A DNA stretch of 64,000 nucleotides, from positions 1,612,001 through 1,676,000 of the forward strand of contig CM030336.1 in NCBI GenBank assembly GCA_017654855.1, in the 5' to 3' direction. A program made the translations under genes and the position numbers. Positions 9,894-47,147 of this stretch are shown one piece after another (position 1 is the first letter of the stretch; the number at the start of each line of letters is the position of its first letter). This DNA is from Podospora anserina. Taxonomy: Eukaryota. Under the pieces are notes generated by a model. That model was given only the letters and a program-made list of their open reading frames with translations. It had not been told where the DNA came from and searched no databases.

Positions 9894-11104
9894 TCACCCA
9901 TTCACCCCCCAAACCCTTCTCAGCCAGCCCCCTAACTCCTCCATCACCAACTCCGTCTTCTCCTCCGCATCCTTAACCACCTCCTCCTCCCAACCCATCT
10001 CCTCCCTCACCTCCCTATGCTCAAACCCGGCCCCAACCCCCGGCACAAGCACCCACTTCACCCTCCCCTCCTCAAACCAAAACCTCTCGTCCTCTTTCTC
10101 CAACCTTTTCTTAACCCCCCCTTCCGAGTTTATCTCCCTCCTGCTTACCTCCCCCTTCCCCACCAACCTCCTAGCCAAACCCTCATTCTCCCCAGCCAAC
10201 CCATCCCCCTCCCCAGCAATAAACCCCCTAAACCCCTCCCCACCCCGCGCATAAAAAGGACTAACCAACCCGTCCCTCAAGTCAACCCCATAAGGCACAT
10301 ACCCCCACCTCCACGCCCCCTCCTCCCCACCGCCCGCCGCAAGATCCAGCCAACCCCCCCAACTGACCACCACTCCCGGGCAACACTCCTCCCTCTTCAC
10401 CCCTTCAAGCAGCGTCACCGCCATCGCTAAATTCCCCCCCGCACCGAAACCCAGTATCCCCACCCGTCCCTTCTTCTTATCGTCGTCCACCCCCCTTGGA
10501 GACGTTCTGTCTATAGGAAGACTCTCATCCCCCAACGCATCGACCAGCAAAGCCTCCACGTCGTGCACCGGTGCGGGAAACACCGAAGCAGGGGCTTTGG
10601 AGTAGTTCAGCGCTATCACCAAGACGTGGTATTTATCCGCAAATGTCCGGTTGAACTCGTCGTCATCTCTCGGAGTGCCCAGGACAAAAGGCGCGGCGGC
10701 GGAGCCGTGGACTGTGAAGAGAGTTGGGAGGGTGGAGGGGGAGGTTAGGTCGTAGGAGGAGGGGAAGAAGATACTGCATAACCCAACAGTAAATATCAGC
10801 AAATTCCATGGCATCGGATAGATGGGAAACAGGGAGAGGGGCGGGGGGTTGGGCAGGGCACATACCGGACAGGCAAATCAGGCCTGCACTCATAACTCTT
10901 CACTATATCCGGCCTCGTCGACGGCGGGTAAAAGTACTCCTTCCACTCCCTGAGCCAGGCCGAAGGAAAAGCTAGCGATTTCGCCGTGTAGATTCGGGAG
11001 AGGCGGGTTATCCTCGAGAGGAAAGGGGGTGGTTCGTGGGTCAATGCTCTACTCGTCGTCGCGGTGGTGTCATTCTGTCCTGACGCTGGCGCAGAGTTGT
11101 CCAT
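9894..11104 (-). CDS. HSL-family alpha/beta-hydrolase (Abhydrolase_3) homolog, probably catalytically inactive
   Basis: Exon 1 starts at ATG 11104, with an intron at 10774-10865 (GTATGT...CAG). Motifs are TLFTVHGS, ALNYSKAP...FPAPVHDV, GILGFGAGGNLA and LVSPFY. Confidence 0.75.
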
Positions 11105-19602: not shown

Positions 19603-20952
19603 GGACGTGATCATGGGGTTGACGAGCTGTAGGGATAACCACACAAGTGTGATGGCTTAGAACATCCGAGTAAATTCATCCATAGGTGCCTACCCGTCTC
19701 CTCATATATCTGCCTTTCCCTGGAGGGGCCCTGGCAAGCGCTCGGTTAAGATTGATGGACTTCATTTTTCCTTATTTCCCATGATGCGGGGTCCTCTTCC
19801 CACTCTGCGCGGAGATGATCCGGGTATGTTGCGATTGCAACCTTCTCCAAGTGCGAGATGCCATCATGGCCATCTTTTCAAAGGGCAGCACGATATGTTG
19901 GGATTCCTCGTTACCCTGTGCCTCCTCTTATAACCTGAATCATGGGGTTTTAAACTGGCTTATCTGGGCTCTAATCTACCCACCTCGCTCAGAATTCAAG
20001 CTTTGCTCACCGTCCTCATGGTTAGGTAGTTTGGGTCGCTCATGATCTATTCACCGTGCCGACGGCTTCCTTACTCGCTGCTGGCAGCACTCTTGTCTTA
20101 GTGTATCTGGGATGATACGTTTTTCCCTTCCTTGAAGTTTCAAGTTCGAGACAAACAGTCATAGTCAATGTACTGGTGTCCCACACTTTCTTACAGGGTA
20201 CAGTTCCCGACATGTGGGCAAGACAGTGGAACACTTTTTTCTTCCGGGTGAAAAAAAGGCGGCGTACCCAGCGGGTGTGCCCAACTGTTTCAATACCCGT
20301 CGGCAATATTTCTATTATCCAGGAGGAAAATCGCCGTTAACAACGGAGACTGGACTATGAACGTCGAGGCCATTGAGGCAACAGTTCAAGTTGCAATGAC
20401 CAACTACCACTCTCCGCCACCTCAGCCACACACCCAAGATTACACATATGTGGCTGTGAATGAGGAAATTCTGAAGAGCAAGAGCGGAGGGCAGGCAAGA
20501 CTGGAATGTGGGGTTTGGTACTAGACTGGGAGAAAATGGCAAGGCCGTTAATGGCCCAGCTGATGACTCCCACCATGGCCCCCGAGCTTCCGCTCAACCG
20601 ACCTAGCAGACACATCTCCAGCTAAGTGTGGTCCGGCTCGGCCGTATGCCCCCAAGTAAATTGGGTGCTTGTGGAGAGACAGATGTAAGACCGGGACAAA
20701 CCTTCCCGCTAATACAACCTTGGTCTGCATGTTGATCTTTGCCAAGGTACAAGGATACCTACCTATCGTTCGTTACTCACACCCCCCTAGCCACGCAACC
20801 CACCCGATCACCATAGCATCTCGACCTGCAAGTGACACAGGTACACGTCTTACCCCGAGGCTAGTCAGTGGACATAATTAGCAGTGTTTGGCATCCTCGC
20901 CCGTCTTTCCAGCCTTCTCCTCTACCAGCACGACAAACGAAAAACAGCAAGA

Positions 20953-23130
20953 ATGATGGACACCAAGGTTCTCTCGCGAGATGATATTGACAACGAAACA
21001 CTCGAGATCATAGCCGAAGCGTGCCAGATTTCGACGAAGGATATTGAGGACATCTACAGTTGCGTACATCAACAACTCGACCATGTCAGCCACAGCCAGC
21101 CGGGCCGATCCGAATGGTTTCAAATCGTGCTCTCCTTTGATGAGGGGATAGAGCTTGAACGGTGGTGCAGGGCTCTGCAGAGAGTCGTGAGGGCTAACGC
21201 CGTGTTGCGCACGAGATTGGTTCAATGTCGGGGGCTGGGAGTGTTACAGGTGGTCATCAAGGAGGACCACGCCACAGAACACCTCTCTGGAGACGTTGAG
21301 GAATATTTGAGAGATGACCAGGCTCGACGGATGGACTTTGGGGTCCCTCTTCTGCGCTCAGCCTTCATCGGCAGGAGCTTTGTTCTGACCATTCACCACG
21401 CCATTATGGACTACTGGTCGTTAACCACGCTAGTTCAGCAGGACATCGTCATGGCCTTCCTCGGGGAAGCACCTCCGGAAAGACCTCAGTTCAAAGAGTT
21501 CGTGGCTCACTGCCTCGCCATCGACGAAGGAGCCGCCAAGGCCTTTTGGGCCTCCCGCTTTGATAGCCGCCGTCTTCCCGTCATCTTCCCGCCTGTTGCA
21601 CCTGGGCATACACCCTACCCCAGCCAAGCCGTGGAGAAAGAAATCGTCTTGACACACCAGCTGGGCCCCGGAAGCATCTCCCCAACACACGTCCCCACCT
21701 TCGCCGAGGCCGCTTGGGCACTTACAGAGGCCACTTACGCCGACAGCGACAGCATCTCGTACGGATTTGTCCTTTCTGGACGCTCCCCGACGCTTGGCGG
21801 CCTCGAATCAACCCTGGGACCGATGCACGTCGAGGTGCCCATGCAAGTCAACCTCAACATCCAACAGCGCAAGGGCATGACGGTGGAGCAACTCGTGAAG
21901 GACAGGGCAGCCTCGCTGCGTCAACTCCAAGCACACCCCGCACTCCAGTACGGCTTGACCAACATCTCTCTTGTGAACGAAGCGGCCCAGGTCTCGTCCA
22001 AATTCCAGACGCTTTTCAACATCATCCCCGCGCTACCTCCGAAGTTCTCCGCCGCGTCTGACGCACCAGCCCCGATACGGATGGATCGTGTGCTTTGGCA
22101 GGCGCGGACGCTACCGGCCTTGATACTACGCTGCAAACTGGAGTCGATCAACCGAGATGGAGCAACGCAGGGTCCTGGGGCGACTAGGATTTTGCTCAAG
22201 ACTTTGTACGACCCCGCAGTCCTCCCTGAACGGCAGCTACATCGCATTCTGAATCAGTTTGAGCATACACTTCGCGTGCTGGCCGAGGTTCCTCTGACCT
22301 CCAGATTGGACAGGCTTCCGCTCTTCAACAAGCATGATTTGGGTGAAGTGATGCGCTGGAATCATGATGGAGCGCTGAGAAACGGAAGGTCCATCGATGC
22401 CGCCTTGGGCGCATTGTTTCCAGGAATCCCCTCGGGTCGCTGCAAAGTTTGGTTGGCAAGCCTGCAGAATCCCAACGAACTTGCGCCGATTGGGAGCGTA
22501 GGACAGCTTTGGCTGGAAGGCCCGGAGCTTTCTTCCGCTTCCTCTCCCTACCTCTTGTCAACCTTGCAACAGCAAGTTCCTCCGTGGGTGTTATCCTCTG
22601 ACAGCCACCACCCACAACCCACCGGACTGTTCATTCGCACAGGGTATCTCGCCAAGTATATCGAGACAGGCAGCGGGGAAGATAACGAGCTGTGCGTCGT
22701 GGGACGGCAAGAGAACCGGGTCAAGATCAACAATCAAACGGTTCAGTTAGAGGAGGTCGAGGGCTTGATTATGCACCATGACGATGTCCAAGACGCTGCC
22801 GTTTTCACCAAAATCGCTGCCGGGCGCACGCAACTCGTCGCAATGGTTGTGCCAAGATGCACCGTGACCCCTGGCGATACGGACTCGGACTCATCATCAG
22901 ACACGGAGGCCATTTTTGCGGGGGAGATAAAGGAGATGAGGGGTCAGCAGCTGCTTCTGGACTCGGTTCGTCGCCATGCGGGTGAGGGTTTCTCTTCTGA
23001 AAGACACAAGATCCCGACAGTCTGGCATGCCATTGAACAATTTCCATATCTCGAAGAAGGCAGCGGAATCAGTGGGTTGCATACAGTCGACCGGGAAGCT
23101 CTTCGCAGGTGGTTGAAACTGCGGCGTTGA
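20953..23130 (+). CDS. NRPS-derived protein: intact condensation domain plus internally deleted, degenerate adenylation domain; no T domain
   Basis: C-domain motifs IEDIYSC, LRTRLV, TIHHAIMDYWS, ISYGFVLSGR, LGP...VP, FQTLFNI. The sequence then jumps from the WN start of an A domain directly to late A motifs (LAPIGSVGQLWLEGP, FIRTGYL, GRQENRVKINNQTVQLEEVE, VDREAL). Confidence 0.85.
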   Translation: MMDTKVLSRDDIDNETLEIIAEACQISTKDIEDIYSCVHQQLDHVSHSQPGRSEWFQIVLSFDEGIELERWCRALQRVVRANAVLRTRLVQCRGLGVLQVVIKEDHATEHLSGDVEEYLRDDQARRMDFGVPLLRSAFIGRSFVLTIHHAIMDYWSLTTLVQQDIVMAFLGEAPPERPQFKEFVAHCLAIDEGAAKAFWASRFDSRRLPVIFPPVAPGHTPYPSQAVEKEIVLTHQLGPGSISPTHVPTFAEAAWALTEATYADSDSISYGFVLSGRSPTLGGLESTLGPMHVEVPMQVNLNIQQRKGMTVEQLVKDRAASLRQLQAHPALQYGLTNISLVNEAAQVSSKFQTLFNIIPALPPKFSAASDAPAPIRMDRVLWQARTLPALILRCKLESINRDGATQGPGATRILLKTLYDPAVLPERQLHRILNQFEHTLRVLAEVPLTSRLDRLPLFNKHDLGEVMRWNHDGALRNGRSIDAALGALFPGIPSGRCKVWLASLQNPNELAPIGSVGQLWLEGPELSSASSPYLLSTLQQQVPPWVLSSDSHHPQPTGLFIRTGYLAKYIETGSGEDNELCVVGRQENRVKINNQTVQLEEVEGLIMHHDDVQDAAVFTKIAAGRTQLVAMVVPRCTVTPGDTDSDSSSDTEAIFAGEIKEMRGQQLLLDSVRRHAGEGFSSERHKIPTVWHAIEQFPYLEEGSGISGLHTVDREALRRWLKLRR

Positions 23131-24689
23131 TTGGACCCCGTGTTACTCGCAGTTACAAGCATTGGCAACGGTTGAATCAAGTAGTGATCAGCAACGATAC
23201 AGCCATGTCCCCTATCTACAAGTGATTTTACCTCAGGAACTACCAATCATGTGTGGGCGATAGCTGACGCAAAGGATCGGACACCTGCTGTTGAAGAACA
23301 TCCCGACATACCGACCGACATACCGATAAAGTAGCATCCTACTGTCTGGTCACCGAAGGGGTTTTGCCCAGGTCTTGTCTGGTGGTAATATTGGAAAGCT
23401 TTTGCATGGAAACATATCGATGCGAATCCGAGAAGACAAGAACCGGGTAAACCATCTAACCGCGTCATATCAAAACTTTGGGCGGTTTGAGTTGCCCGGA
23501 CCCGAGTACGACCCATGGACGCAGGAATAGATTACAGCCAATCTCATTTGGCGCTCTGCCCAGCCGCCCTTCTAGAAGACAAGGAAACCTTTGTACACAT
23601 TGATGGTTCCCCGCAGGCGGGGTGTAACCCTCCCGTACATTGGCCAAGATGATTACATATATGTTTTTTTCTTGGGCCATGTACTCGGCAGTGTTACTGG
23701 GTGTGTCTGGCACTCCCAGATGACAAAGGCCACTGCAATTGATTTGGCTGAGTGGTAGGGGACTGTTGGATATCAATGGACTTTTGCTGCTACCGCTTGA
23801 AGGGGTTCGCTTGACAGACATTGCATGCGTGTCTCAACCAACACGCCCGGGCTCTTTCTACCATGATTCGCAGACGGACCCCAAATGGGGACCCGGAGGC
23901 GGGCGCTGGGATGGATGGAAGAGATAAGATGCTTACGTCTTGGCTTGTTGGTGAACGTGATCCCAGTAACTTGTTTCCGGGGAAAGGTCAAGGTGCGGGT
24001 TGGATGGGGCGGAGGTACGGCATGGCGAGTTATGACACCATTATGCTGTTGTTGTCTCAGGGTATCTAGAACCGGCAAGCCGTGTAAGTCCTATTCCCAC
24101 CACATTCTGCCCGAAGGGTGACATGCTGATCCGACAATTCCGCATGGCTTGAAGCATGGTATTTTTTATTTCACCCCCCCGGCATCAGGGACAAAAGGTT
24201 GCCCGAGCTGATGGTTTTTTTTTTTGGTGATACCTACCGGTTCAAGGATGGGCGCAATCAATGTTTCGGTTGACGACATGGGTCAAAGGATGCAGAGTGC
24301 AGGAAGATATTGAGAATGCCAATGCTGGGCATTCGTGGGGAATTATCAATATCAATTCGTGGGGTACTGGGGTATGGTATGTTTCTGTCTCGAGGCGAAG
24401 GCCGTCTCACTTTCTAGGTACCTACCCAAGGTAGTGATCCCTTCCAGCTCACACATCACTAGGTACTGGGCTTTTACTGATGCTGCTCGACCGTCACAGA
24501 GTTCATCCGAGACGCCAAAGGTGCGTAAGCACATCCACTTGATTGGGCTGGGCGGCGCATGGTTGCTACCTATCCTATCTAAAGGTAAGGTACCTTGATC
24601 CTGTGTGTCTCCTTCCTGTGGGGAGTTTGGTCCCTGACTATCAAGGCTCTGGGAACGACATCTCGAGGAACAGACGTGGTATAAAGAAG

Positions 24690-24697
24690 TATATAAA
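24690..24697 (+). promoter_or_regulatory. Probable TATA box of the PKS gene
   Basis: TATATAAA about 140 nt upstream of ATG 24839, followed by a pyrimidine-rich leader. Confidence 0.45.
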
Positions 24698-24838
24698 TTC
24701 GTCTTGGGCCGCTTTGACTTTCACCCTGATCTCTATCATCATCAAACCGCCCCCCCCCCTCCCTCCATCCACTTGTTCCTACTCTCCATCACCCCAACCA
24801 ACCCTCAACGGTACACACACCCTTCTCTCTAACAAAAC

Positions 24839-27800
24839 ATGGCACCCTTCAACGACCCAACCCCCATCGCCATCGTAGGCCTGTCCTACCGCGCCCCAGG
24901 CGTGGGCCGCAAGGGGTTGTACGACTACCTCTCCCAAGCCAAATCCGCCTGGAGCACCATGCCCCCCACCCGCTTCGACCAGCAGGCCTTCCACACCCCC
25001 GGCCTCGACAAGCCCGGCTGCTTCAAGGTCAACGGCGCCCACTTCCTCCCGGACGACATCTACCAGTTCGACGCCGCCTTCTTCAACATGAGGGCCGAAG
25101 AGGCAAAGAACTCGGACCCTCAGCACAGGATGATGCTCGAGTGCGCGCTCGAGGCGGCCGAGAACGCGGGCCAGTCCCTGCTGGACATTGCGGGAAAAAA
25201 CATTGGCGTTTTTGTCGCTTGCGGCTCGCAAGAGTACGCCCACCGCGTGGCGGAGGATCTGGCCAAGACGACTGCTTGGACCGCGACGGGGATTGCGGCG
25301 TGCATGTTTGCCAATAGGCTGAGTTACTTTTTCGATGTGCACGGCCCGAGCGTGGCTATTGAGGCGGCGTGCGCGAGTAGTTGTTATGCTACGCATCAGG
25401 CTTGCCAGGCGCTGAGGAATGGGGAGTGTGAGGCTGCTTTTGTGGGGGCTTCGGCTATTTGTTTTAGTCCCAACTTGTGGATTACGTTGGAGAAGATGGG
25501 GGCGCTGTCGGCCGAGGGGAAGAGCTTTTCTTATGATCACAAGGCTGCTGGGTTTGGGCGGGGTGAGGGGGGTGCTTGTCTGTTGATTAAGAGGCTTGAT
25601 GATGCGGTGAGGGATGGCGATCCTATTCATGCTGTTATTAGGGGGTCTGCTTGCAATCACTGTGGGAGGTCGGAGGGGATTACTATGCCGAGTCGGATAT
25701 CGCAGGAGCGGTTGTTGGTCAAGGTGCATGAGGCTGCTGGGCTTAGCCCGGGGGAGACGCCTGTTGTTGAGGGCCATGGGACTGGTACGCCTGCCGGGTG
25801 AGTTTTTTTCTTTTTGTTTTTCTTTTTCCTGTGGCCCCACAATAAATTCAGGGGCTGGAAAGGGGGAATGGTCTGACATGACAAGAAACTAATCTGGATA
25901 TTTTCAGTGACCCCATCGAGGCTGGCGCATTCGCCGCCATCTTGGCCAAGGACAGGACAGAAGCAAACCCCCTGTACATTGGATCGATCAAGTCCAACTT
26001 TGGGTGAGTGCTGCATTCAGGTGATTTCAAGTTTGAACTTCACTCTGACCAATTTCCAGTCATCTAGAAGGGGCAAGCGGTATTCTGGGCATGGTCAAGG
26101 CTATCCTTATGGTCAAACACGGCATCATCCTTCCCACCGCTGGCTTCGAGGAGATGAACAAGCGCATCGAAGGGAAGGAAAAGATGCGTGTCATTGGAGA
26201 CAAACCAATGGCCTGGCCCGAAAATGAGCTCAGAAGAGCACTGGTGACCAACTTTGGTATGCGTTTTCTTCCATTCTCATCACTCGTGGGGAGAGGAAAC
26301 AATGTGCTGACAGATTCAAGGGTTTGGTGGTAGTAACTCTGCAGTCTTGCTTGAGCAACCTCCTGTGTCGCCTGCGCTGACTGGCCACCTGGCTTTGAGG
26401 GCTTATACCAATGGCCATGCTGCCAATGGCGTCAATGGGCATGCCAATCGTACCAACGGTGTCAATGGCCATCACCATGTCAATGGCAACGGCATCAATG
26501 GCCACAGCACGAACGGGACCAACGGTGTCAACGGCCACCACCACGCTCCAAACCGGCTGTTTGTTCTGTCAGCCAAGACAGACAAGAGTCTCAATGCCTA
26601 CCTGTCTTCGTTTGTCGAGTTCCTTGGGGACGAGAACCCCACGCCCGACTGGTCTACTGTCCGCGTCGACGACGCCGACTTTACCAAGAATCTCAGCTAC
26701 ACTCTCGGCCAGCGCCGCACACATCATCCATACCGTGTCGCCGTCGTCGCCAACTCGGTCGATGGCCTGAAAGAGAAGCTCTCCTCCAAAAAGCCCGCCA
26801 GAGCCAAGCAAGACCGCGTCGTCGCCTTTTGCTTCACCGGCCAAGGCGCCCAATATGCCCAGATGGCTTCGGGATTGCGTCATTACAAGGTCTTCGCCGA
26901 CGCCCTTGACCAAGCCGAGGACCTTCTCACCTCCATGGGGGCGACGTGGTCCTTGACCGAGGAGCTCGGCAAGGATGCTTCCGTCTCCCGCGTTGACGAT
27001 GCCGAGATCAGCCAGCCGGCGTGCACTGCTGTCCAGCTCGCTCTTGTCGAGCTGCTCAGGAGCTGGGGAGTCACACCCAAAGCTGTCACCGGGCACTCTA
27101 GCGGCGAAATGGCGGCCGCGTACACGGCCGGGCTCATCTCCTTCACGGCTGCTGTTGCTACCGCCTACTATCGCGGCCAGGCTGCGTCGCAGCTGGCGTC
27201 CAAGGGAGGTGTTGGTGCCATGCTGGCTCTGGGAGTTGGCTTTGAGGAAGCCTCCAAGCTCATTCGAGATCACGCGGGTGACGCCTATGCGACTGTTGGT
27301 GCTATCAACAGTCCCAATAGCGTGACCGTGTCGGGCGATATGGCTGCCATTGAGGCCATCCACAAGGCCGTGGACGAGCAAGGCTTGTTTGTTCGCCGGC
27401 TCAAGGTCAGCCTGGCGTACCACTCTCGTCATATGGAGGAGGTGGCCGATTGGTACCGCGCGGCGATCCAGCCCTACTACGAGGATGAGTTTGTCGTTGT
27501 CGAGAACGATGACAGTAAGCCGGCCTTTGTTTCCTCGGTCACTGGCCGGGTCGAAACTGTGATTGACTCATCGTACTGGGTCAACAACCTTGTCCGACCT
27601 GTTCGGTTTTCTGATGCCATCACCAAGCTGTTCTCCCAACAGGAGGATGTCAAGACCGGCCGGACACCTAATGTCATTGTCGAGATTGGCCCGCACGCAG
27701 CCTTGAAGAACCCCATCAAGCGCACGGTCGAGGATCTCTCCCTCAAGTCCTTCTCTTACCTCCCTTCTTTGGTCAGGAAGGTAGACGGCAGCCAGGCGCT

Positions 27801-30800
27801 GCTGGACCTTGCAAGCGGCTTGTTCACCTCTGGCATCCCTACCGATCTCGGTGCCGTCAACCAAACCGACAAGACCAACGCCCAGGTCCTCACCGACCTC
27901 CCAGCCTACGCGTGGGACAAGTCAACCAGCTACGAGATCATGCCCCGCCACACCCACGAGCTCATGTTCCCAGGCGAGCCCTTCCACCCCCTCCTAGGCC
28001 GCAAAGCCGCCTCCAGCGGCAACGCCAACGGCCAGGAGCGCACATACCGCTCCCTCTTCAGCCTAGACGACATCCCCTGGATCCGCGACCACAACGTCTC
28101 TGGTGTCGTCATCTTCCCCATGACAGGCTACCTCGGCTGCGCGATCGAGGCCCTCCGGCGCGCCGTCGCCCCCGGCACCCCCGTAGAGGCGTTTGTGCTG
28201 AGGGACATCCACGTCGTCCGCAGCTTACAAGTCGAGGAAGAACAAAACGTCGATCTCCTCACCAAGGTCAAGCCCACTTCTACGGGTACAGCCAGTTACT
28301 CTCCCACCTCGTGGTCGTTCGAGGTGCAGATCCTGCACAGCGATACCAACTCCTGGGCTACGCACTGCTACGGCAAGATCGAAGCCGAGACCGTCCCGCT
28401 TCCTACCGAGAGCCCGGCTACAAAAGAGTCTCTTTTGTTGCTGCACCGCGCTGAGGCGACCCCGCTGGAGGAGCACGACCCCGGTGTTGTCTACGCGGCA
28501 GATGGTCTCCAGGGCACCCTCTACGGCCCGTCCTTCCGGAACACCACCCGCTACCGCAAGGGGGAGAAGTTCACAGTCATTGATCAAAAGCTTCGCGACT
28601 TGGGACCAGAGGTTGATCTGCTGAGCAAGTACGGCTCCCCTTACACGGCCGATCCGCCAACGCTCGATGGGTTTCTGCAGGGTGGTGGGTCGTTCAGCGA
28701 GATTGACTGGAAGAGGCTGGCGCTGATGCCCAACCATGTGAACCGCTTGAGGGTGTCGAACCATATCGCTCTTGGGAAAGAGTCGGAGCGGATCGAGACT
28801 GTGACGAGGCTGCTCGAGCACGACGCCAAGGGAGGGAGGATGCTGATGAGCGTGGCTGCGTTTGTGGTCGATGACAAGAGCGGCAAGCGGGAGCCGATTG
28901 TCGAGTGGGAAACCGTCACGTTCCGCGCGCTGCAGTCGGGTGATGACGAGGATGAGCTACCGGAAAACGGCCTGCCCGTCAACTGGCGGTTCGAGCTGCT
29001 TGCTCGGCTCGACTTGCTGCCCAAGGAGGAGCAGCTCAGGCGGTTTGCTCCCCAGAGGATCAGCGAGGAGGAGATGGAGGGCGGGCGGGACTTGCACGCG
29101 GCTGCGTGTTGGTTCGTGGACCAGGCGCTCGTCGAGACGGCTGGGGATGACGAGTCGGCTATCCCGAGTCATTTGGTCAAGTTCAAGAAGTGGGCCAGGA
29201 GGATTGTGGATGCCGAAGGGCCAGAGATTGAGGATCCGGTCGGGCTGGTGAGGAGGGTCGAGGCTATCAGCGCCCAGGGGGAGTTGCTCTGCGCTATTGG
29301 GAAGCAGCTAGTGCCGATTCTGAGGAACGAGGTGCAGCCGCTGGAGGTGATGCTCAAGGATGGGTTGCTGACTCGGCACTACGAGGCTGATGTTTCAAAC
29401 GCCTACTTTAGTCAGCTGGTTGGGGAGCTGGTGTACGACCTCAGCAACCTGGAGCCCAACATGAGGATCTTGGAGATTGGTGCCGGCACGGCGGGCACGA
29501 CGCTGCCGATTCTCCAGGAGTTGTCCAAGGACCGGGAGGAGGGCGCGTTCTTGAGTTATACCTTCACCGATATCTCGAGCGGCTTCTTTGAGAACGCCCG
29601 CAACGGCAAGCTGAAGAGGTGGTCGGATTTGAACCGCATCTCGTATGAAAAGTTGGACATCAGTCGGGATCCGGTCGAGCAGGGGTTCGAATTGGGCGAG
29701 TACGATTTGATCGTTGCGGCAAACGTGCTGCATGCGACGGCCAACATGATCACCACCATGAAGAATGTGAGGAGCTTGCTGAAGCCGAGAGGCAAGGTCA
29801 TCCTGCTCGAGGCCAACAGGCACGCGCCCATCACGCTGCCGTTTGCGCTGCTGCCGGGTTGGTGGTATGCCGAGGATGACTACCGTGACCGGGAGTCGGG
29901 ACCGCTGCTTGCGCTGGAGAGCTGGAACAGGCTTCTCGTCGACACTGGTTTCACCGGAGTTGATGTGCTGTATCAAGATCACCCTGGCAAGCCGGAGCAG
30001 ATGTTGAGTGCTTTCATGTCGAGCAGGATCGGCAAGGTCGTCGACGACGACGACAAGATTCAGATCACGGTTGCCGGTCCCCTCATGGATGACGACGAGC
30101 TCGACTATGCCCAGCTTGTTGCCGACGCCATCACGGAAGAATTTGGTCTGGTCACGACAATCAAGCCTTTCCTCGAGGTTGACGCCGAGGGTGAGGATGC
30201 CCATGTCGTCGTCATTGACTCTCCCCGCCACAGTCTTCTCAAGGAGGTAGACGAGGACACCTTTAACGCCATCAAGAGTCTTGCGATTCACAACAAGGGC
30301 ATGCTTTGGATTGTTCCCGAGCAAGACCAGGCGGCGCCGGTTCCCGAGGTTCACTCCATCAAGGGTATCCTGAGGACTGTCCGGTTGGAGAGTGAGCCCA
30401 AGCACATCCTCATGATGGAGGGGATCCCTTGCACGGCCGAGAGAGCTGATGGCATTGATGCCATCCTCAAGGTTGTCAGGGTGCTTGCGGATCCCGAGGT
30501 CAACGCGCTAGAGGATCGGGATTATCTCTTCCGTGATGGACTCATCCACCAGCGGCGCATGCGCCCGCTGAAGGAGCTCAAGGAGCAGTTCGGTATCGAG
30601 CAAGGTGTTGCCATCAGATCGGTACAAAACATCTGGTCTGGCGACAGCGGCTTGGAGATGACGATGGAGTCGGCTGGGAGCCCTGAGTCGATCTACTTCA
30701 GGCGCACCGATGTTCTTCAGGCACCGCTGGCCAACGACGAGGTCGTCGTCAAGACCGAGGCGGCAGGGCTGAGCTACCGCGACCTCAATCTCGTGTTTGG

Positions 30801-32805
30801 GTCTATTCCCTGGGCTCCTCCTGGTTTCGACGGGGTTGGCACTGTTGTCAAGACTGGCGATCAGGTGGCGCACCTGAGAGAGGGAGACAGAGTGTTCTTC
30901 TTGTCACTCGAGGGCAGCGGGTTGGCCACGTACAAGAAACTTCCCTCGTGGCACGCTGCTCGGGTGCCCGCTGGCCTCAGCAGCATCGAGGCTGCCACCC
31001 TGCCGCTTGCTTACACCATGGCTGTGGCCGCTCTTGTCCACACAGCCCGTCTCAGAAAGAACGAGTCGGTCCTCATCCACTCCGCCGCCGGTGCTGTCGG
31101 CCAGGCCGCCATTGTCATCGCTCAGCACATCGGTGCCCGCATCTTCGTCACGGCTGGCACCGAGGCCAAGAGGGCCTTCCTGCACGAAACCTACGACATC
31201 CCCAAGGAACAAATCTTTCCCAGCCGCACCCCACAGTTCAGGGACAGCATCCTCTGCGCCACGGCCAGCAAGGGAGTGGACGTCATCATCAACTCTCTCA
31301 CTGGCGAACTCTTGCAAGAAACATGGTCTCTCATGGCCGCCTTTGGCCGCTTCGTCGAGATCAACAAGAAGGACGCCTTTCAGAACACCAACCTCTCCAT
31401 GAAAGCCTTTGAACGGAACGCCACCTTCAGCACCGTCGACCTCCGCGCTTTGCACCAACACCGCCCGGATGACCTGAGAGATGTCATTGGGGAGGTCGTC
31501 AGCTTGCTGCAAAAGGGAGTCGTGGTTCCTATCCACCCCGTGACCGAGGTCCCCGTCTCTCAGTTTGCCGACGGTCTTCGCAAGCTCAAGACTGGTGATA
31601 CCACGGGAAAGATTGTCGTTACTTTTGGCAAGGAGGAGAAGGTGCTTGCCGAGAGCGCGCTTAGGCCGTCACCTCCTGCCAGGTTGGACCCCAACTCGAC
31701 TTACCTTGTGACTGGTGGCACGAGAGGTATAGGTCTTGGGCTGGCGGACTGGATGGTGGAGCACGCTGGGGCCAAGAATGTGGTTGTGCTTGGGCGCAGT
31801 GGCCCGGAGGGAGCTGAGGTGCGAAAGGTGCTGAAGAAGTATGCCGAGTCGGAGAATGTGAGGTTCAGGGCGTATGCTTGTGATGTTGGGTCGAGGGAGT
31901 CGCTGGAGGATGTTGTGGCGGCGATGAGGGAGGAGGGTTTGCCCCCGGTAAAGGGTGTTGTGCACAGCGCTTTGGTGCTGAATGACAAGCTGATGCTGAA
32001 TGCCACGTATGACGACTGGAAGTACATCACTGGCCCGAGGGTCCAAGGAGCTTGGAACCTGCACGAGTTGCTGCCCAAGCTGGACTTCTTTATTGCACTT
32101 TCGAGTTTCTTGGGTGACGGTGGGAATCCAGGTCAGAGCATTTACGCTGGCACGGCCTCGTTCTACGACGCCTTCTCTCAGTTCCGCGTCGAGCAAGGTC
32201 ACCACACTGTGTCCATCTCCCTCCCCGTCGTCTTGGGCGTGGGTTATGTTGCGGACCACGGCATAGCTGAGAAACTCCAAATCACCCTCGGTGGCACGAT
32301 CCGCATGCAGGATATCGTCACTCTTGTCGCGAGCGCCATCAGCCAGGGCCGCGACTCTCCCTTCATCAGCCCCGAGGGCAAGGCCGTCGCGTACAAGCTC
32401 CACGTCCACGGCAAGCCGCTGCATGACATCCCTTGGAAGTATTCGCACCCAATTCTTCTCAAAGACCGCCTGCACACAGACCTGACGGGCGGCGATGCCG
32501 AGAACCAGAATGCTGCCAGTGCGGCATCTACTGCCTCTTGGACCACGGCTTCTGACCCGCAGGTTGGCTTGACCGAGGCGCTGATTACCAAGGTGTCGGC
32601 CATGACCATGATTGCGAGGGACGAGGTTGAACCTGACGCGCCGCTGAGCTCGCACGGGCTGGACTCTCTGGTGTCGGTTGAGCTGAGGAACTGGATCAGG
32701 AGGGAGACGGCGGTTGAGCTAGCTTTGACAACGATTACGCAGGCGGCGAGTCTGAGGGCGTTGGCGACGCATATTTTGGCAACGAGGGCTCTGGTTGCAA
32801 AGTAA
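24839..32805 (+). CDS. Highly reducing iterative type I polyketide synthase (KS-AT-DH-cMT-ER-KR-ACP)
   Basis: Introns at 25798-25907, 26004-26059 and 26257-26320 restore one frame. KS: DPQHR, EAACASS, EGHGTGT, GHLEGASG, NFGFGGSN. AT: GQGAQ, GHSSG, YHS. DH: WIRDHNVSGVVIFP. cMT: ILEIGAGTAGT. ER: LIHSAAGAVGQAA. KR: TGGTRGIG and GQSIYAG. ACP: GLDSL. Confidence 0.95.
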
Positions 32806-34558: not shown

Positions 34559-35581
34559 TTACTCCATGTGGGCAGTCAGATCCACGACCGCAACGCCGCG
34601 TTTGAGGGCTGATGCCGCCGCGGCGTCAGTGGCGCTGGCCGTGTCGTTGCTGGCAAGGGTGCCATTGGCAGCAAGGGTGCCGTTGTTGGGAGGGGTAATG
34701 ACAACTCCGGCGTCAGCTCCGGCACCAACATTCCCGCTGTTCATGCCGCTATCAGCCCCAGCTCCGGCATTAGCATCAGCGCCGGCATTAGCATCTGCTC
34801 CGGCTCCGGCATTGGCATCTGCTCCGGCTCCGGCATTGGCATCTGTCCCAGCGTTGGCATTTGCTCCAGCACCAGCGTTCCCATCAGACCCAGCATTCGC
34901 ATCAGCTCCTGCATTGGCTCCAGTTCCGGCGTTAGCATCAGCACCAGCATTGGCATCAGCACCACCGTTGGCGCCTCCTCCCTGGCCATTACCATTGCCA
35001 TTACCACCACCACCACCACCACCCATGTTGCCCTTCCCCTTTCCACGCCCATTATCATCATCATCGAAACCATCATCCGCATCCGCATCATTGCCCTTCC
35101 CCTTGCCATTACCGTTGCCATTGCCATTTCCATTGCCGTTACCATTGCCGTTGCCGTTGCCATTGCCGTTGCCATTGCTGTTGCCATTGCCATTGCCATT
35201 GCCATTGCCGTTGCCGTTACCATTGTCGTCATCATCACCGTCGTCGTTCTTCCCCTTTCCTCCACGGGCCTTGACACGGGTAGCTTTGGTCTGGCTTCTC
35301 TTCGTTGCGCTGCGAGGAGCAGTAGCCTTGCCAACACCCCTGGCACGAAGGACCCGGGCATATTGAGGGGCAGGGACAGCGTTTGCAACCGGGATGGCTG
35401 CTCCTGCTACTAGGGCTCCCTGATGTCTGGTTAGCTTTTTGACGGGGAAAAAGGGGGAAACAGAAATGCTTACTGCATAACGAAGTGTGATGGCCCTTGT
35501 GTCAACACCAGTGAAGCCGGCGACAGATGCGGCGGCGAGGAGACCGCCGGCGAGGGCTTGAGCGAGGGTGGGGGCGTGCAT
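34559..35581 (-). CDS. Secreted low-complexity Gly/Asn/Ala-rich repeat protein
   Basis: Signal peptide MHAPTLAQALAGGLLAAASVAG; probable in-frame intron at ~35421-35473 (GTAAGC...CTAAC...CAG); an (NG)n tract and GADANA-type repeats. The 3' end is uncertain. Confidence 0.65.
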   Translation of the reverse strand: MHAPTLAQALAGGLLAAASVAGFTGVDTRAITLRYAVSISVSPFFPVKKLTRHQGALVAGAAIPVANAVPAPQYARVLRARGVGKATAPRSATKRSQTKATRVKARGGKGKNDDGDDDDNGNGNGNGNGNGNGNSNGNGNGNGNGNGNGNGNGNGNGNGKGKGNDADADDGFDDDDNGRGKGKGNMGGGGGGGNGNGNGQGGGANGGADANAGADANAGTGANAGADANAGSDGNAGAGANANAGTDANAGAGADANAGAGADANAGADANAGAGADSGMNSGNVGAGADAGVVITPPNNGTLAANGTLASNDTASATDAAAASALKRGVAVVDLTAHME

Positions 35582-36464
35582 GTTTATAGGAGTGTGGATG
35601 TGGAAAGAGAACGGTAAATCTTGAATGGTGCGTGAAAAGAATGAGAGACGGCACAGCCGAAAGGAGCGAAAGATCTATGAAGGGTTTGAAGGAAGGACTA
35701 GAAGTGAAGATGACTGCCTGAGTATCCTGAAGAGGAGAACGAAAACGGGGACAGAATCTTGGACGAGGCTGTCATTTATAGCAAGATCATTGTGGTACTT
35801 TAGATGCAGGATGCGATCTCGGACTTTTCCCCATGCTGGCCGCTGTTGCAAAAGGGGGGCATCAATCGGGGTCGAAAATCGGGATCATCTCAAGTTTACT
35901 GACAGCAAATGCAAAGCCACTGGACTTGATATCGGGCTTGTGTGACGAAGAAGGATCCAGTCGGTGTTGCGGCGGAAACTTGGATCGGGAAGATGGGCTG
36001 GATATCTTGAAGTGATGAACGTCTGGAGGCTGCATATTGCCGGCCGCATTTGGCGGAGAGACGGCTCCCAGTCTTTGGATCTCAGATGGAACGATCGAGA
36101 CTGTGGCACATTGGGCCTGTGGTGGTGACCTGCGAGGAACAGATGGCAGGGGGCGGATGTTGTGCCTGCTGCGCCGTTGGGGTGCGTCTTGATGAAGCCT
36201 CGCTCGTCAGAACCACCCCGCCAGATCTTGTGTTTCTGCTGGGCCGCGGGTTGCTGGCGAGGAGACACAGGGCCGGTGACCGGGCCGCATTTCATGATCT
36301 GCGTCTTGGCCTGCGGCGGGAGATCTGTGTCCTTGCGGTCAGAAAGCTTGTATGTGATGGGGTCGTCTGGGTTTCACTGCCATCCTGTGGCCAGAATCGA
36401 GTTAAGCCACATGCTCGGTGTTGAAAGGAGTTGGATGACGTAGTTACAGGCCTTATCTAATGTT

Positions 36465-38076
<1,612 letters not shown>

Positions 38077-39598
38077 TCAAGTGAGAAGCTGAAGGGTGCA
38101 ATCATTCCAGCATAAATACCCCCTGGGATTTTATGTCTGTCCAATATACACTACAGTATGGGGTCCTGACTATTACACCCCGTTCATCTATCAAACCTGC
38201 ATAAGCGCGCGGTCACAATTCCCTTGATACGAGCCCAAAGTTGGGAACAGGCATTACCTCGTCAACTCCTGGTAGCACTCGCACCCCAAAACCAACACCT
38301 CTGACCATTCTGCGCCTTGTCCGTTGCGCCATCAGGCATGGCGCTACTCACCGGCTATTTCCCCAGGTTCTGGGCACTTTATCCATATTCCCACGTGTGC
38401 CTTGCATCTATTTCTACTTCGGCTATTTACCCATGGGCCGGTCGTCCTTGATGCAGCATGTTTGCGGGGATCTGTGGGAAAAGCTACTTTGTGATTGTAA
38501 TTCTCCGGTTGGCGGAATATTTCTATTTCGTCTCTATAGCAGTCTCTTCTTTATGTTGAGCGATGAGTGGAGGGAATCAATTCAAGTTTTTTGAAGAAGC
38601 AATATTAATCTCTACTGGCCAATCCAAGTTCAAGATTGACATACGAAGATCGGACCAAGGGGATTCAAAGATCAGATGAGTCGAATACCTAGTTATCTCG
38701 ATTCTATCCAAGCATTGCTGCACTCCTCCGGATATGGGTTGAGGTACACGGGTAGATTTGAAGACTTATTATCTTACTTCAAGTTCCTTTCTGTGATCCT
38801 GAGCCTGGACAGGCTGGCAGAGGCTTGGAAGTGTTTTGTGCCACCTGCATCCGTGCAACAGAGCTATGGCGTCATTTCACCAGACTCTTTGCCACTTGAT
38901 CAGACGACATAGTTCTGAAACGCCATCCCAAAGATTCCCAAAACCTCATCTCTTCGCCGAGAGGGATATCCTAGCCTCATGAGAACAAAAAGACAGACAC
39001 TGTCACAAGGATGTCAAGATACAATCCCGGCCTTGAAACCACACACTCGGGTCACCATCACACACTGACTCGCCACGAGACACCGGAACCGGTCTTCGAT
39101 CTGACATCCTGGGTAGCATTTCTACCGAAGCCAGCGCCGGAACAGGTCAACATCGACTTCGATTTCAACGGTCCCCCGATCATGTCGCCCCGGACTCGAC
39201 AATGAACCGAAGGCCTTGGGCACCCCCTGCCAGCTCAAACCCTTCTTAGCTCCCGTCAGATCAACTCCACCATGGGACCGTATTCGTGCAATCACACCAC
39301 TATATCTTGATGTTTCCCCTTTTCCTTGTTCCTGTTTCTTTTTCTGGCAAAGACAACCATCTTTCTTCACCAACCCCTTTTTCCTTTTTCCTTCCTCTCT
39401 TCATTTTTGTCGGTAAAGCTCCGGGCAGAACTTTGGCCGACTCTCTTTTTCTCCTCATCCCCGTTCGCTCTTCTTCTTCCTCCCGGTCAAGGCTGAGGCC
39501 TTGCCCTCGTTTGTGATACCCCTATCTTCCCACCGGTCGACACCGCGCCTCTCGTTCACTGTCCACTCTTCTCCTGCTCACCACAAAAAAACACCATC

Positions 39599-40827
39599 AT
39601 GTACCCCCTTTCTACCCAAAACACCCTCCTGCCGCTGGCGGCCTTCCTTCTCCCTTCCCTGGTCTCCGCCCACGGTGTCATCCTCGCCGCCCAAGGCGAG
39701 GCCGATTCCCCCCCTTCCGTCGGCTTCATGGTCAACGACGCCATCGCCCGCAACTGCACCTCCATCAACCCCTGCCAGATGGACACAACCATCATCCGCG
39801 ACGCCGAAATCGCCGCCGGCACCGTCAACTCCTGCGGCCGCACCAAGCTCAACGGCAACATCGACGTCGGCACCGTGACCGAAAACGCACTCGCCGAAGG
39901 CGCCGTCACGGCCGTGAGACAAGGATCCAGCGTCGACGTGACGATCCACCAGGTCAACGCCGACGGCGCAGGACCTTACACCTGCGACTTGGACGAAGGG
40001 TCCAACTCGGGAATCATGTCCCACGAGCTGGTCGTGAGCAACAATATCCCTGGACAGAATGGACTTAGTCAGGCTGCTGAGCAGGAGTTCACCATCACGG
40101 TGACCATGCCGGATGATATGAAGTGCATCGGTGGTTCGACGGGGAACGTGTGTACGGTTAGGTGCAGGAATGCTGCTCAGGCGGGGCCTTTTGGAGGTTT
40201 GATTTCCCCCCCTTTTCCCACCCACTTCTGTCCAGCTCTCATAGGTACTGACACTGTCATGAAGGATGCTTCGCGGTCCAACAAATCGACGTTGAGCCCG
40301 CTATCAACACCGCCAAGGACATCACCACAGCCGACACGCTCGAAGCAGCCCAGTTTCAGACCTCGGCTAACCAAGCCGCCTTTGCCGCCGCTGTTGATGC
40401 CAACGCCAAGGCTGGCTCTTCGGAGCAGGAACAAAACCTCGCTGCTGTCGAGGCTATCCTTGCGCTGAGCACCGTTTCTGCCGAGTTTCCTACTTTGACT
40501 CCGACGATCAACACGGAGAGGATTGTGCCTACGGGTACGGGTGGTGCGCAGCCTACTGCTGCTTTGGGCAGTACTCCGTTCCCTGTTGAGAATGGTGACG
40601 GCAACAACGGAAATGGCAACGGGAACACCGGCAACGACAATCCCGACGCTGGCGTGAATCCATTCCCTGTTGAGGATGGCAATGGCAATGACAACGGTAA
40701 CGGCAACGGCAACGGCGGTGGTAGCGGCAGAGGCAGAGGCAGGGGCGGCCGCAACAGGAATCAAAAGAGATACCACACCGTCGAGGAGCTCCTCAAGCGG
40801 TTCGTCCTCCCCGATGATGGCAACTAA
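39599..40827 (+). CDS. Secreted Egh16/GAS1-like (DUF3129) protein
   Basis: Signal peptide then HGVILAAQG; family motifs CQMDTTIIRD, CGRT, GNID, HQVNADGAGPYTC, CTVRCRN. An intron at 40197-40264 gives GPFGGCFAVQQ. Confidence 0.88.
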
Positions 40828-42407: not shown

Positions 42408-45400
42408 CTAATCCTGGACTGGAATATCATAATGGAAAACCAGCTTCCCTAGCTTCGGATCCATCAGCTTATTCAGCTCTGTCGCCGTGTTATAGAGCTC
42501 TTTGGCTGCCTCATTAGTAACAAGGTTTGCCCCCTAGCCCGGTCCCAGGTTCGAGCTGATTTCCCGAAGCTGATACAGCATATACTCGGTTGCTATTGTT
42601 GTCATGCGCGAAGACACGGCAGCTTCGTGCTGGCGCCAGACTTCGAGGGCGCCTGTCAAGCCCATGAAAGACTCGAGCAGTTGGAACTCGCGGGCAAGGG
42701 CGGCGCGGGTTATCTCCCAAGACAGGGCAAGATCGTTAGAGTTCATGTAAGAGAAAACGCCAAAGGTCTGAGGGAATGAGCAACGGATCAGTGGTTGCCT
42801 CTTCATGTTGATTTCTCTTCATGTAGTGTGGGACACTGAAGGGCCTGGGTTTTCCCAGACCCACACCGGTTTGCTCTTGGGGCTGGATTTTCTTACTGTT
42901 TTCTTCTTAACCAACAACCAACTACTGTAATACTAATTTGTTTACCATTTTCTGGCCAATTTTGGCCTCATTTTCGCAGCCAGTGACTTTCCTAGGTCAC
43001 CAGCCCTACATGTAGCTACCTTTTGCATGACCCCCAAGATCTTCTGGGCTGCTTGCATGTCGGAAGTTGTCATCACCTGTCGCATCAAGGATTGAAACAC
43101 GGCGGGGGCCATTGGCTTGTTCCCGAGCACCAACGCCATTTTGATCTTGTTCATGTCGTTGGGGAGGACAGACATGCCGGTTCGGAAAGCTGTTGATCCC
43201 ATGATGGTGAACATGCGGTCGTTCGGTGTCACTGGTGGAGTCCACCCCTTGACGTCTGTGACAATGGCGCCGAGCTGTGGCAGGTGGATGTTCTCCGGAT
43301 ATGCCTTGTGCCACACATCCAGGAGGACTTGCGGATTGAGCTCGCCAGAGGTCAAGCCTGTCCGGGCCCAAGCTGGTATGATTGAGAACTGACTGTGTTT
43401 TAGTTCGACAATGCTCAGCGGAAACTTATCGGGCGTCCTTCGGCACAGAACTTACATCAAGCAAATGTTCAGCGTCATATCTCAGCTTTCCGGCAAGTGC
43501 AGGCAGGCTGTCTGGCTTCCACCACTGGGCCACCGTGCCAGCGCAAACGTCCTTGGCCATCCCAAAGCCGGCCTTCAACCTCAGCGTCTCGGATCCGGAA
43601 CCTTCAAAAGTCCCCGGGCCGGTTCTGTACTTCATGGATTTCATTACCAGATTCCCAGCGCCCTTGATGCCAGCCGCACTGGAACCTGCCAGTGTTTTGA
43701 CCGCGACTGTCATTGACCTTCGGACTCCAAAGCTTGAGGGGGCTCTTGCTTCGAGTCCCACGCCTGTATGATCCGAGAGCGTGTCGTCGACCTCGTCATC
43801 GCTCTCGCTCAGGGGCTCGGGACCGTAGGCGTACCAGGTCTGACCGCGAACCGCGGATGAGCCCGCAGCAATAGCACGGCTGGTCACGGTCAACGTGTCT
43901 CTACTGGGCCCATCTCCGTTAGGATAATCGGCACCATCATCCGTTTCACCTTCGTCTGGGTCCGAACACCCCCCACCATCCAGAACAGAGCGAATCTTGG
44001 AATTGCATTCAGCAACCGGGTTCAGTGACTCTTCGTTCACTTCACAGCAGAGAGCTCTCTTTCGCCACCCTTGTTATGAAGGCCCATTGTCAGCAATGCT
44101 GTCGTGGCTCGGAGGGTTTCTTCAGCACGAGACGCAAGACTCACAATTGCAAGGGTAATCGGCATCCCCATAGTCGTTCGTAGCCAGGAAGATCTCATGT
44201 CTCTCGCAGTTAGGAACCGCACAGTCCTTGCTCCCTACCCAATGGCACTTCTTGCAGGGAACTGGCTTGTTCTTGGGACAGCAGTAGTCGTTGCCCACCG
44301 TCCTCCCCCAGCGCTTATGAAGAGATGAAGGAAGGGTGATGGAACCATTCCGCTTCTTGAGCGACTCATCGTACTTCCAGCACTTTTCATGAATGTCGAT
44401 GGCGTAAGCGACCTTTTCCTCGTCGGCCTTGCAGTGCTTGCCGCTGCGGCTTTTGTGTCAGTTGGCACCAGACACAGGCACCTAAAGGGAAATGGAGATT
44501 TCTCGGAAAGGAACGAGCATACCATGCTTCAGTCCAGTTAGGTAGTCAGTTCCCATCCCAAACCAGACTCCCAAAACGGTTGGCTTGGTTTTGCGTGAGA
44601 GAGAACTCAGGCTCACCTTCTTGGCCTTGCAGCCATGAGCATCATACCCAACAAGCTCTTTCGTCGTCTTCAACTCCAGCGCCCCCTTGTAAGCTGTGAT
44701 ATCCTCCTCAATCTTGTCCAGCATCTCACAGCCTTGCCCCAGAAACGAACTGGTATCGGTGATGACCTTTTCCATGTCATTCACCTGCTCCAGGCTCCCT
44801 CGCTTCCCAAGCTTTTCATTGCCCGTCAAGGCCTTGTGCGCGTTGTTGTCATAGTCACCGAGATCTGACGCCCAGATCAGCGAACCGGACAGTTCGAGGC
44901 TGTCAGCCCATTTGACCTTTTGCGCAAATGTCTCCCTGTCGTCGAACGAGATCCACTGGTCGTTGTCCCAGGAGAAGTACTTGACGGCGGCCTCTCTGTC
45001 GTGAATCACTTGGATGGTACGCTTCTTCTTGTTTTGCTTGGCGACGATGTCTTGGACCTCGTGGTGGGCAAGGTCTTTTCGGTACGTAGTAGGCAGGGGG
45101 TTTTGTTAGCTTGGTCTATCTATGTTGGTTCAACCTTGATGACAACTCATACCCGCTTGTACCGGTGCAGACACCTTTCTCGGCACCACCTTTGAAGGGG
45201 CAGCCAGGTTTCGTGCAGGAGGGATTTGGGAGCGTGAAGGCTCGGCCGTAGAATCCGAAACCGAGCGCGACTTGGGGATGGGGGGATGTTGACTCTCCAA
45301 AGCAGCTCGCAGGCAAGCTTGATCTCGGTCAGGTTGGTGTGCCCCTGAACAATATTCCCGCCGTGGAGCGTGATGTCAGCAAGCAAACAGCTATCCGCCT

Positions 45401-47140
45401 CGCACAAACCAATGCGGAAACAGGAAAGCGACTCGGCTTACATCGGATTGTCTCCATCCCACACTCCATGCAGGTCATACGACATCAGATTCAACCAATC
45501 GGCATACTTCATCAAGCCTGGCAGGTCGAACCACTTCAAGTACCAGTACGAAGAAGGGGCAGTAAAGGTGAGGCCCAGCCTTCTACCTGACTTGTCAAAT
45601 GCCTCTCGTAGCGTCTTGAACAGCTCGACATAGTTCTTGGTGTCATCCGGCTTGCCCCCGCGGTCTGGTGCGCCTGGGTACTCCCTTTCAGATGTTAATG
45701 CTTTTCATCTCGACATGTGAACCACAAGCTTACCAGTCAAGATCAGCACCGTCAAAGCCGTACCGATTCATGAGCTTGAGTAAGGCACGCGCAAATTTCT
45801 GACGGTTGGCAGCAGTTCGGGCAATGTTGCCAAACACGGGCTGTGTTGCTGTGCCATTATCGCTGAATGTCCACTGTCGTTCGTCAGCTCATTAGACACA
45901 CGTTACTGCTGTGGGGGTACGAAGGTCAAGACTTGCTCCGCCGATGGACACATATATCCGAAGCGAGGGTTTGATGCCCTTCAAGTCGACAACATCCTGA
46001 AAGGTCTTCGCCGGTGTCTGTGCATCCATAGTGGTGATTTCGAAACTGGAAGGGTCGATGTAGGCGAAGGCATAGTTGATGTGTGTCAAGCCGTCAACTG
46101 TGATGGGCATCTGTTGTCAACTGTGTGGTCAAACACAGCACTCGGCACGGCGACGAGCTTACCTGGTAAATCACGAGCGTTTGTCTGGTGGCATTTTGAT
46201 CTGTCGTTCCATGCCTCCCAGTATCCAATGACTTCAGATGTCAGCATGTTCTGCGTAGGTGTCCCCACGGAGCCATTGCATGATGTGTGAAAAGTAAAAG
46301 AGTACCAACCTTTACTAAGCTAAGCGTCTTCCCACCGCCGCCCCCCCGGGGGTGCAGGATGTTCGATACAATTGGACTGACAGCCAGTAGTGCAGAACTC
46401 TGAGAAACAAGTCAACAACCAGTTACTCCGTAGTGAGCTTGTGTTATTTGGCTCTTGTAAGGAGACATACCTGAAGTCGTGCCGCAAAATCCATGCTGTG
46501 AACAGCTGGTAGCACAAAATGATCATCATTAGCCAACACACCTGAGTGACAGCCACGGTCAGCACGATGGAAACCTTCTCACCAGGTGTTCAAGGGGCAT
46601 GTCGTCCCTGGGATTTTGGAATATTTTCCACACTCGGCAGTAGCATCGCAGTTGCTCGAACAGCCAGAACCGCAGTACGTTGGCCCATAGCCGCAGAAGC
46701 CATCTTTTCCGTAGCCATTCCCAGGCCTCATGATCCCCTACAAGCAGCTAGGGTTCAGCGACAAATGCCTGACATCAGTTAACACGACACTGCCGTCATG
46801 TCCTGGCTGGCTTCACACACATACAGGCATCGGGTAAGCCACGCCCGTTTTTTCTTGATCGATGTGGGTGAGAGAATGCTCATGCTGATATGTCGCTTCA
46901 CTCAGCGATGCAAGCTTTCAGCTCTTAGAAGATTGGCAGCTTCGAGAACTATGTGATTCTTCCTGCAGAAAAGAGCTTGGCAATCTGCGCAACTCAATCA
47001 AGCCGGCTTGTACCGCGAAACAAGATCTTGTAGTCCCTGGGGGTGCGGCGGTATTGCTTATCCAGGTAGGTCTCAGGGTGTTTTCGCCATTCCGTCGTGC
47101 CCAACCAGATTTGCATGTAAATCTCTAACAGCTTTCTCAG
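42408..47140 (-). pseudogene. GH18 subgroup-C (killer-toxin alpha-like) chitinase with CBM18 modules, disrupted
   Basis: Hevein-like GFCGYGPTYCGSGCSSNC...CPLNTCCSQHGFCGT; GH18 core THINYAFA, SIGGW, FDGADLDW/EYP, MSYDLHG, GFYGR, WISFDD, IWASD. Lesions include a +1 base at ~45275, a G-run shift plus 5-bp duplication at 46315-46345, an in-frame TAG at 42534-42536, and no identifiable start or signal peptide. Confidence 0.85.
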
Positions 47141-47147
47141 TCTCAAT

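Follow-up and report, generated by a model that had tools for sequence, protein, structure and literature searches.

A two-gene HR-PKS locus of Podospora anserina in which a truncated NRPS probably serves as the hydrolytic release partner

The locus described here comprises an HR-PKS of the PMA clade (Pa_5_3750) and, upstream on the same strand, a truncated NRPS gene (Pa_5_3740 by gene order and annotation), the product of which, C-deltaA, retains a C domain, has lost the core of its A domain and carries no T domain. Judged by the linkage of their homologs in other genomes, the HR-PKS gene and the C gene form a conserved pair. By analogy with the acr pathway, the C domain would accept the finished chain from the ACP of the PKS and release it to water, a reading to which we assign a probability of about 0.63; the predicted product is a methylated polyhydroxy acid with an unreduced tail. 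Both genes are located in the window, i.e., the whole stretch of 64,000 nucleotides that was analysed (C6:1612001-1676000 of a 36-Mb fungal genome).

The C-deltaA gene occupies positions 20953-23130 of the plus strand and, as the sequence-only reading of this DNA had stated, represents an uninterrupted ORF of 725 codons (counted from ATG) with an intact HHxxxD motif. No intron is evident, because a single contig from a run presumed to be RNA bridges 20776-23565 without a gap (the presumed-RNA contigs served only for the junctions that they bridge). The Condensation domain (21049-22287) was matched by Pfam at aa 33-357 of the 725-aa protein (E 1.2e-17), and its fold runs on to about aa 445; the active-site motif is HHAIMD (21394-21411, aa 148-153). 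The C domain is followed by the start of an A domain, by 22 residues at the deletion junction (22357-22425), and by a remnant (22426-23127, about aa 492-725) that matches the A6-A10 region of A domains, with eroded motifs and no A10 lysine. The counterpart of the 22 residues amounts to about 317 residues in full-length relatives (317 in Aplosporella P0009), i.e., about 295 residues of the A core, including the A3 P-loop, are gone. Pfam matched neither AMP-binding nor PP-binding in the 725-aa protein, which lacks, therefore, the functional A and T domains of a canonical NRPS module. The partner had been called a stand-alone condensation enzyme; this holds for its C domain with HHAIMD, but the protein is not a C domain alone, since it also carries the A-domain remnant. 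The AlphaFold model of the protein (mean pLDDT 78, pTM 0.81) matches NRPS C-A structures. An annotation artefact as the source of the deletion was excluded for the window and for the metagenomic locus L049 (see below) by the continuous frame in the DNA; the deletions in Amylocarpus and Apiospora are those of NCBI-annotated models.

The close family of this protein includes 57 of the 60 C homologs listed: 41 members possess the A core, 14 display an internal deletion, and two stop before the core. HHxxxD is retained in 55 of the 57, the T domain (PF00550) is listed for none of them, and the A-domain motifs are frequently eroded in the full-length members, too. In the C-domain trees, which are quick trees, the deleted forms are scattered over separate positions, and the monophyly of 12 deleted forms was rejected (p-AU 1.7e-7, for a quick tree of 34 selected rows with the constraint run after the first tree had been seen); judging from these trees, the A-core deletion appears to have arisen independently in several lineages. 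The family as a whole (support 100) is nested among starter C domains found at the N-terminus of complete NRPSs, its sister being a C-A-T-C protein. This position supports the origin of the C protein from an NRPS, more exactly from a starter module, in line with the earlier view that the partner had been carved from an NRPS. The nearest full NRPS relatives (e.g., P0441 and P0508; 33-43% identity to the window C domain) open with a starter C domain in the order C-A-T-C... They have kept both the A and the T domain and are able to join an acyl group to an amino acid, whereas the window protein keeps neither domain. Four further species of Podosporaceae retain an intact frame (711-726 aa), with the conservation reaching 88-92% in the C domain, 75-87% in the A remnant, and 92-95% in the PKS. 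Since the C domain is conserved better than the A remnant and nearly as well as the PKS, this pattern speaks for a functional gene and against a relic.

The PKS gene (24839-32805, plus strand) starts 1.7 kb past the stop of the C gene, and its exons are located at 24839-25797, 25908-26003, 26060-26256, and 26321-32805. This three-intron model gives 2578 aa, the length also found in four orthologs from the Podospora complex; for introns 2 and 3, the presumed-RNA contigs bridge GT..AG junctions, while intron 1 was deduced from the frame and the 2578-aa orthologs. The protein is 100% identical to PODANS_5_3750 over 2538 aligned residues. The transcribed intergenic stretch at 23840-24838 (plus strand), harboring three GT..AG introns, probably serves the PKS gene as a long 5' leader. 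The domain order is KS-AT-DH-cMT-ER-KR-ACP, with a SAM-binding motif of the clade type in the C-methyltransferase domain (29470-29796); the ACP (32578-32775) is the last domain, followed by no TE, R or C domain, so the gene had correctly been described as a complete HR-PKS without a release domain. The cis-ER domain (30733-31620) displays altered motifs common to PKSs with a trans-ER in the cluster and, by comparison of motifs only, unlike those of three other PKS ER segments in the genome; the cis-ER of the window PKS is probably inactive.

The arrangement differs from that in TwmB, the PKS-C fusion of wortmanamide synthesis that forms amides: here, the C domain is encoded by a separate gene upstream and the PKS stops at the ACP. 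No KS-fused C forms were found among the 146 checked of 150 listed representative matches. Fum14, which esterifies tricarballylate, and TwmB are likewise C domains acting on a polyketide, but as models for the locus they are not the nearest ones, AcrA and AcrC being closer (see below).

In the PKS phylogeny (FastTree, the AT to KR region, 53-54 of 120 listed homologs plus the window PKS and two outgroups), the window PKS belongs to a 40-row clade (support 100) together with ACRTS2 and the SNOG_04868 cluster. It shares 55% identity over the full length with ACRTS2, the ACR-toxin PKS of Alternaria alternata, and 57% with the Plenodomus PKS. In both the PKS and the C trees, Podosporaceae cluster with Madurella and with proteins of one further shared contig. 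The PMA clade, including phialotides, was reportedly treated by Takino et al. in 2021. According to the available part of PMC4205913, SNOG_04868 is 90% identical to the phomenoic acid PKS2, and via the SNOG_04868 cluster the phomenoic acid cluster of Leptosphaeria maculans (PKS2) falls into one clade with the window PKS. The phomenoic acid and PMA-clade clusters possess trans-ER, RTA1, P450, and TF genes, which were not found in the window.

Specifically, among the 111 stop-to-stop ORFs of ≥100 aa scanned with Pfam (of 237 in the window), none gave a trans-ER, RTA1, P450 or transcription factor match, and no accessory gene emerged when cluster-type queries of the same four types were run against the entire window by tblastn. 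On the upstream side, the neighbours are genes for GH79 and for the housekeeping protein SAPS; downstream, there are genes for a low-complexity secreted-type protein, GH30, and Egh16-like proteins. The statement that no accessory gene is adjacent stands for P450 and TF genes, but an alpha/beta hydrolase is present 10 kb upstream (9894-10877), past the GH79 and SAPS genes. The best trans-ER match in the genome (C2:1043438-1044451) shows 57-59% identity to cluster trans-ERs. A displaced AcrB on this contig was ruled out: the gene resides among housekeeping genes and groups (support 100, in a tree of 63 of the listed reductase homologs) with orthologs unlinked to this PKS, not with cluster trans-ERs. 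Single cluster-type queries against the genome gave the best matches at C6:2434615 for RTA1 (42%) and at C8:364202 for P450 (38%), both ruled out as members of a split cluster by the lack of cluster partners in their neighbourhoods; the single cluster TF query had no match. Thus, the sequence search found no cluster-type trans-ER in the genome.

In other genomes, homologs of the PKS and of the C protein occur at adjacent accessions (Apiosordaria backusii, Cercophora samala, Triangularia setosa, T. verruculosa, and Aplosporella) or adjacent locus tags (Monosporascus), and in Amylocarpus, Metarhizium acridum, Ustilaginoidea, and Xylaria palmicola, they are 3-6 accessions or tags apart. The co-occurrence of the two genes, proposed as a check on their pairing, was thereby confirmed in six genomes by adjacency and in four more at a short distance. 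Among the matches listed, at least 22 of 34 C homologs (the subset of 56 situated on contigs ≥20 kb) share an apparent contig with a clade PKS (at least 18) or a trans-ER-type reductase (at least 12); no linkage appears among the matches listed for the other 12, which is no proof of absence, since the lists consist of cluster representatives. One member of the linked reductase family is a Pseudophialophora protein designated in UniRef as trans-acting enoylreductase; according to the reference list of PMC11791885, this is a genus of phialotide producers. A metagenome scan yielded five loci from 140 candidate stretches, the informative ones being L049 and L050, near-identical to each other; in prokaryote genomes, none of 13 pattern matches was confirmed. 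Locus L049 unites PKS, RTA1, P450, trans-ER, C-deltaA, and TF genes, i.e., the acr gene set, and its C-deltaA carries the same deletion in a continuous frame within a complete cluster. The present state with two genes is derived, having arisen by reduction from a larger cluster; the notion of a minimal two-gene pathway agrees with the lack of accessory genes found in the window, but has to be amended in this respect.

The closest characterised parallel is the acr cluster, responsible for acrophialocinol in Acrophialophora levis, where AcrA alone gave no product, whereas AcrA with the truncated C-A NRPS AcrC gave compound 3, proposed to be a terminally unsaturated congener and shunt product (PMC11791885). 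The trans-ER AcrB leads to compound 4, elucidated as a free acid, and AcrD (RTA1) gives self-resistance (PMC11791885). Hydrolytic release by AcrC was proposed by the authors from co-expression, with reference to Takino et al. 2021, and nitrogen is absent from the acr products characterised (PMC11791885). AcrA has the same domain order as the window PKS, a similar size (2539 vs. 2578 aa), and no release domain, and it is linked to a T-less C-A protein which, by termini and size, represents the same family as the window protein. The AcrC ends encoded by the primers match this family (the C-terminal KTLKN is found in P0045 and P0047, and a similar N-terminus in P0038; the C domain of the window is 42% identical to P0045), and the primer-encoded ends of AcrB match members of the linked reductase family. 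Hence, C-deltaA of the window is most likely an AcrC ortholog, as suggested by short termini, size, architecture, and cluster context. At the same time, AcrC has 1015 aa with a full A domain, whereas the window protein has 725 aa without the A core, which all the characterised cases considered keep. The acr cluster also adds the trans-ER AcrB, the RTA1 protein AcrD, the P450 AcrE, the dioxygenase AcrF, an MFS, and a TF; the trans-ER, RTA1, P450, and TF types were not found in the window. The pathway had been taken for an unexplored one with an unknown product type, a view that finds no support in this form, as the same pair has been characterised in the PMA clade as AcrA with AcrC (PMC11791885). 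With the offloading of an HR-PKS by a trans-acting truncated NRPS already published, the release logic is not new.

Following this analogy, the PMA-clade HR-PKS would build a methyl-branched, polyhydroxy, unsaturated fatty-acid-like chain, and the C domain of C-deltaA, descending from an acyl-accepting NRPS starter C domain, would take this chain off the PKS ACP. Possessing neither a T domain nor a working A domain, C-deltaA would pass the chain to water, giving a free acid. As the searches gave no cluster-type trans-ER, the tail of the chain is expected to stay unsaturated, like that of acr compound 3; from the similarity of the cis-ER motifs to those of trans-ER-linked relatives, we also infer a reductase-free, unsaturated product. 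Trans-acting release, favoured by the sequence-only reading, is indeed the most likely route in view of the requirement of AcrA for AcrC (PMC11791885). The acceptor, thought to be an amine or an alcohol, is a different matter: as stated, this was unsupported, and an acid is more probable than either an amide or an ester, since the elucidated acr products are free acids and their hydrolytic release has been proposed (PMC11791885).

In the available part of PMC4835503, Pa_5_3740 is annotated with Condensation and AMP-binding within a listed secondary-metabolite cluster; both Pa_5_3740 and Pa_5_3750 are up during vegetative incompatibility, while upon bacterial challenge the PKS is up, with no change listed for the C gene. 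Co-regulation is, therefore, only partial, and the anticipated co-expression holds for incompatibility but not for the response to bacteria. A literature search for the locus tags Pa_5_3740 and Pa_5_3750 found no functional study, and the available text and supplement of PMC9864250 do not contain them. Likewise, no study of the locus product or of the A-core deletion was found, although these may be described in subscription journals, which were outside the coverage.

Other fates of the chain have been considered as well. Its transfer to an alcohol, either a polyol, e.g., arabitol or mannitol, or the chain's own hydroxyl, giving an ester or lactone, is unlikely but conceivable because polyol esters occur among the PMA-type products: roselipins and cladionol A, assigned to the PMA clade in PMC11791885, are arabitol esters, and the TMC-151 compounds are mannitol esters (available part of PMC5884252). 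The ancestor was a starter C domain forming acyl bonds, and a Clonostachys PKS is situated near the window PKS in the tree (8-row group, support 92), whereas the AcrC-dependent products are free acids (PMC11791885). Moreover, there is no Clonostachys protein among the 60 C homologs listed, so the Clonostachys esters may need another enzyme. The joining of the chain to an amine or amino acid, yielding a lipid amide, would agree with the intact HHxxxD, with the position of the family within the starter C domains that open complete C-A-T NRPSs, and with the chemistry of TwmB. It is nevertheless highly improbable for a protein with no T domain and a deleted A core, the acr products being nitrogen-free (PMC11791885).

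There is also little probability that C-deltaA persists without a catalytic role from a cluster in decay, the PKS of which would be self-releasing, e.g., via pyrone or lactone formation. The loss of the accessory genes and of the A core is what such decay would produce, and ACRTS2 from the same clade gives ACR toxins upon heterologous expression of the PKS, according to the title of a paper cited in PMC11791885. Still, the frame is intact throughout the other four Podosporaceae, their C domain is conserved above the A remnant and near the PKS level, HHxxxD is retained, and the same deletion is present inside the complete cluster of L049. Finally, the pathway might exceed two genes, being completed by unlinked enzymes elsewhere in the genome, for which the reductase on C2 and the RTA1 and P450 matches on C6 and C8 would be the candidates. 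We regard this as improbable, too, given the housekeeping surroundings and PKS-unlinked orthologs of the reductase, the lack of cluster partners near the other two, and the TF query that matched nothing; such a pathway would be compatible with the hydrolytic release step.

As compared to the known pair, the locus differs in two respects: it is reduced to two genes, and the partner lacks most of its A domain. It provides a minimal version of natural origin in a model fungus amenable to genetics, where one can ask if the C domain alone releases the chain and which nucleophile it uses. The P. anserina PKS thereby gains a specific product prediction within a compound class that has antifungal members. 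In a broader and rather doubtful version, the retention of the A remnant after repeated independent loss of the A core would mean that it serves a stand-alone C-domain release enzyme, derived from an NRPS starter module, as a scaffold for docking or stabilisation, jointly with a cluster pared to two genes and an unsaturated chain as the true end product, possibly a polyol ester, induced in non-self encounters. If true, the end product of Podosporaceae would be a reductase-independent unsaturated chain, which is a shunt product elsewhere.

In the contigs assembled from runs guessed to be RNA, and used for what they bridge, three GT..AG introns on the forward strand (window positions about 24084–24154, 24431–24499 and 24585–24645) suggest that the intergenic stretch 23840–24838 (+) gives the HR-PKS transcript an extended, spliced 5′ leader that includes about 20 upstream ATGs. 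Contig cover also runs on from the C gene, beyond its stop, up to 23992. The PKS start in the named P. anserina record lies 40 residues downstream of that in the window model (24839–24958), and the four orthologs of 2578 aa likewise start 40 residues ahead of the named record. At 31795 and 33149, contigs end loosely, both sites being common to three runs.

The PKS is adjoined downstream by a gene with one spliced intron (34559–35674, −) for a Gly/Asn/Ala-rich low-complexity protein of secreted type, which by gene order is Pa_5_3760, recorded as raised against bacteria in supplementary tables of PMC4835503. Farther on, Pfam matches reveal an Egh16-like domain gene (39497–40468, +) and a GH18 chitinase fragment facing LysM-containing ORFs (44482–49299). 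Upstream, they mark an alpha/beta hydrolase (9894–10877, −) 10 kb and a TRI12-like MFS transporter (1787–3667, +) 17 kb from the pair, both separated from it by GH79 and SAPS genes.

An unclustered MDR reductase is encoded among housekeeping genes on another contig of this genome (G000:C2:1043438–1044451; L047:435–1493), and its P. anserina copy forms a long branch in the tree. Since the trans-ERs of the PMA clusters (those of the HR-PKS clade that includes the phomenoic acid PKS) share about 60% identity with this reductase, the cluster trans-ER seems, judging from sequence, to be a close relative of a household oxidoreductase.
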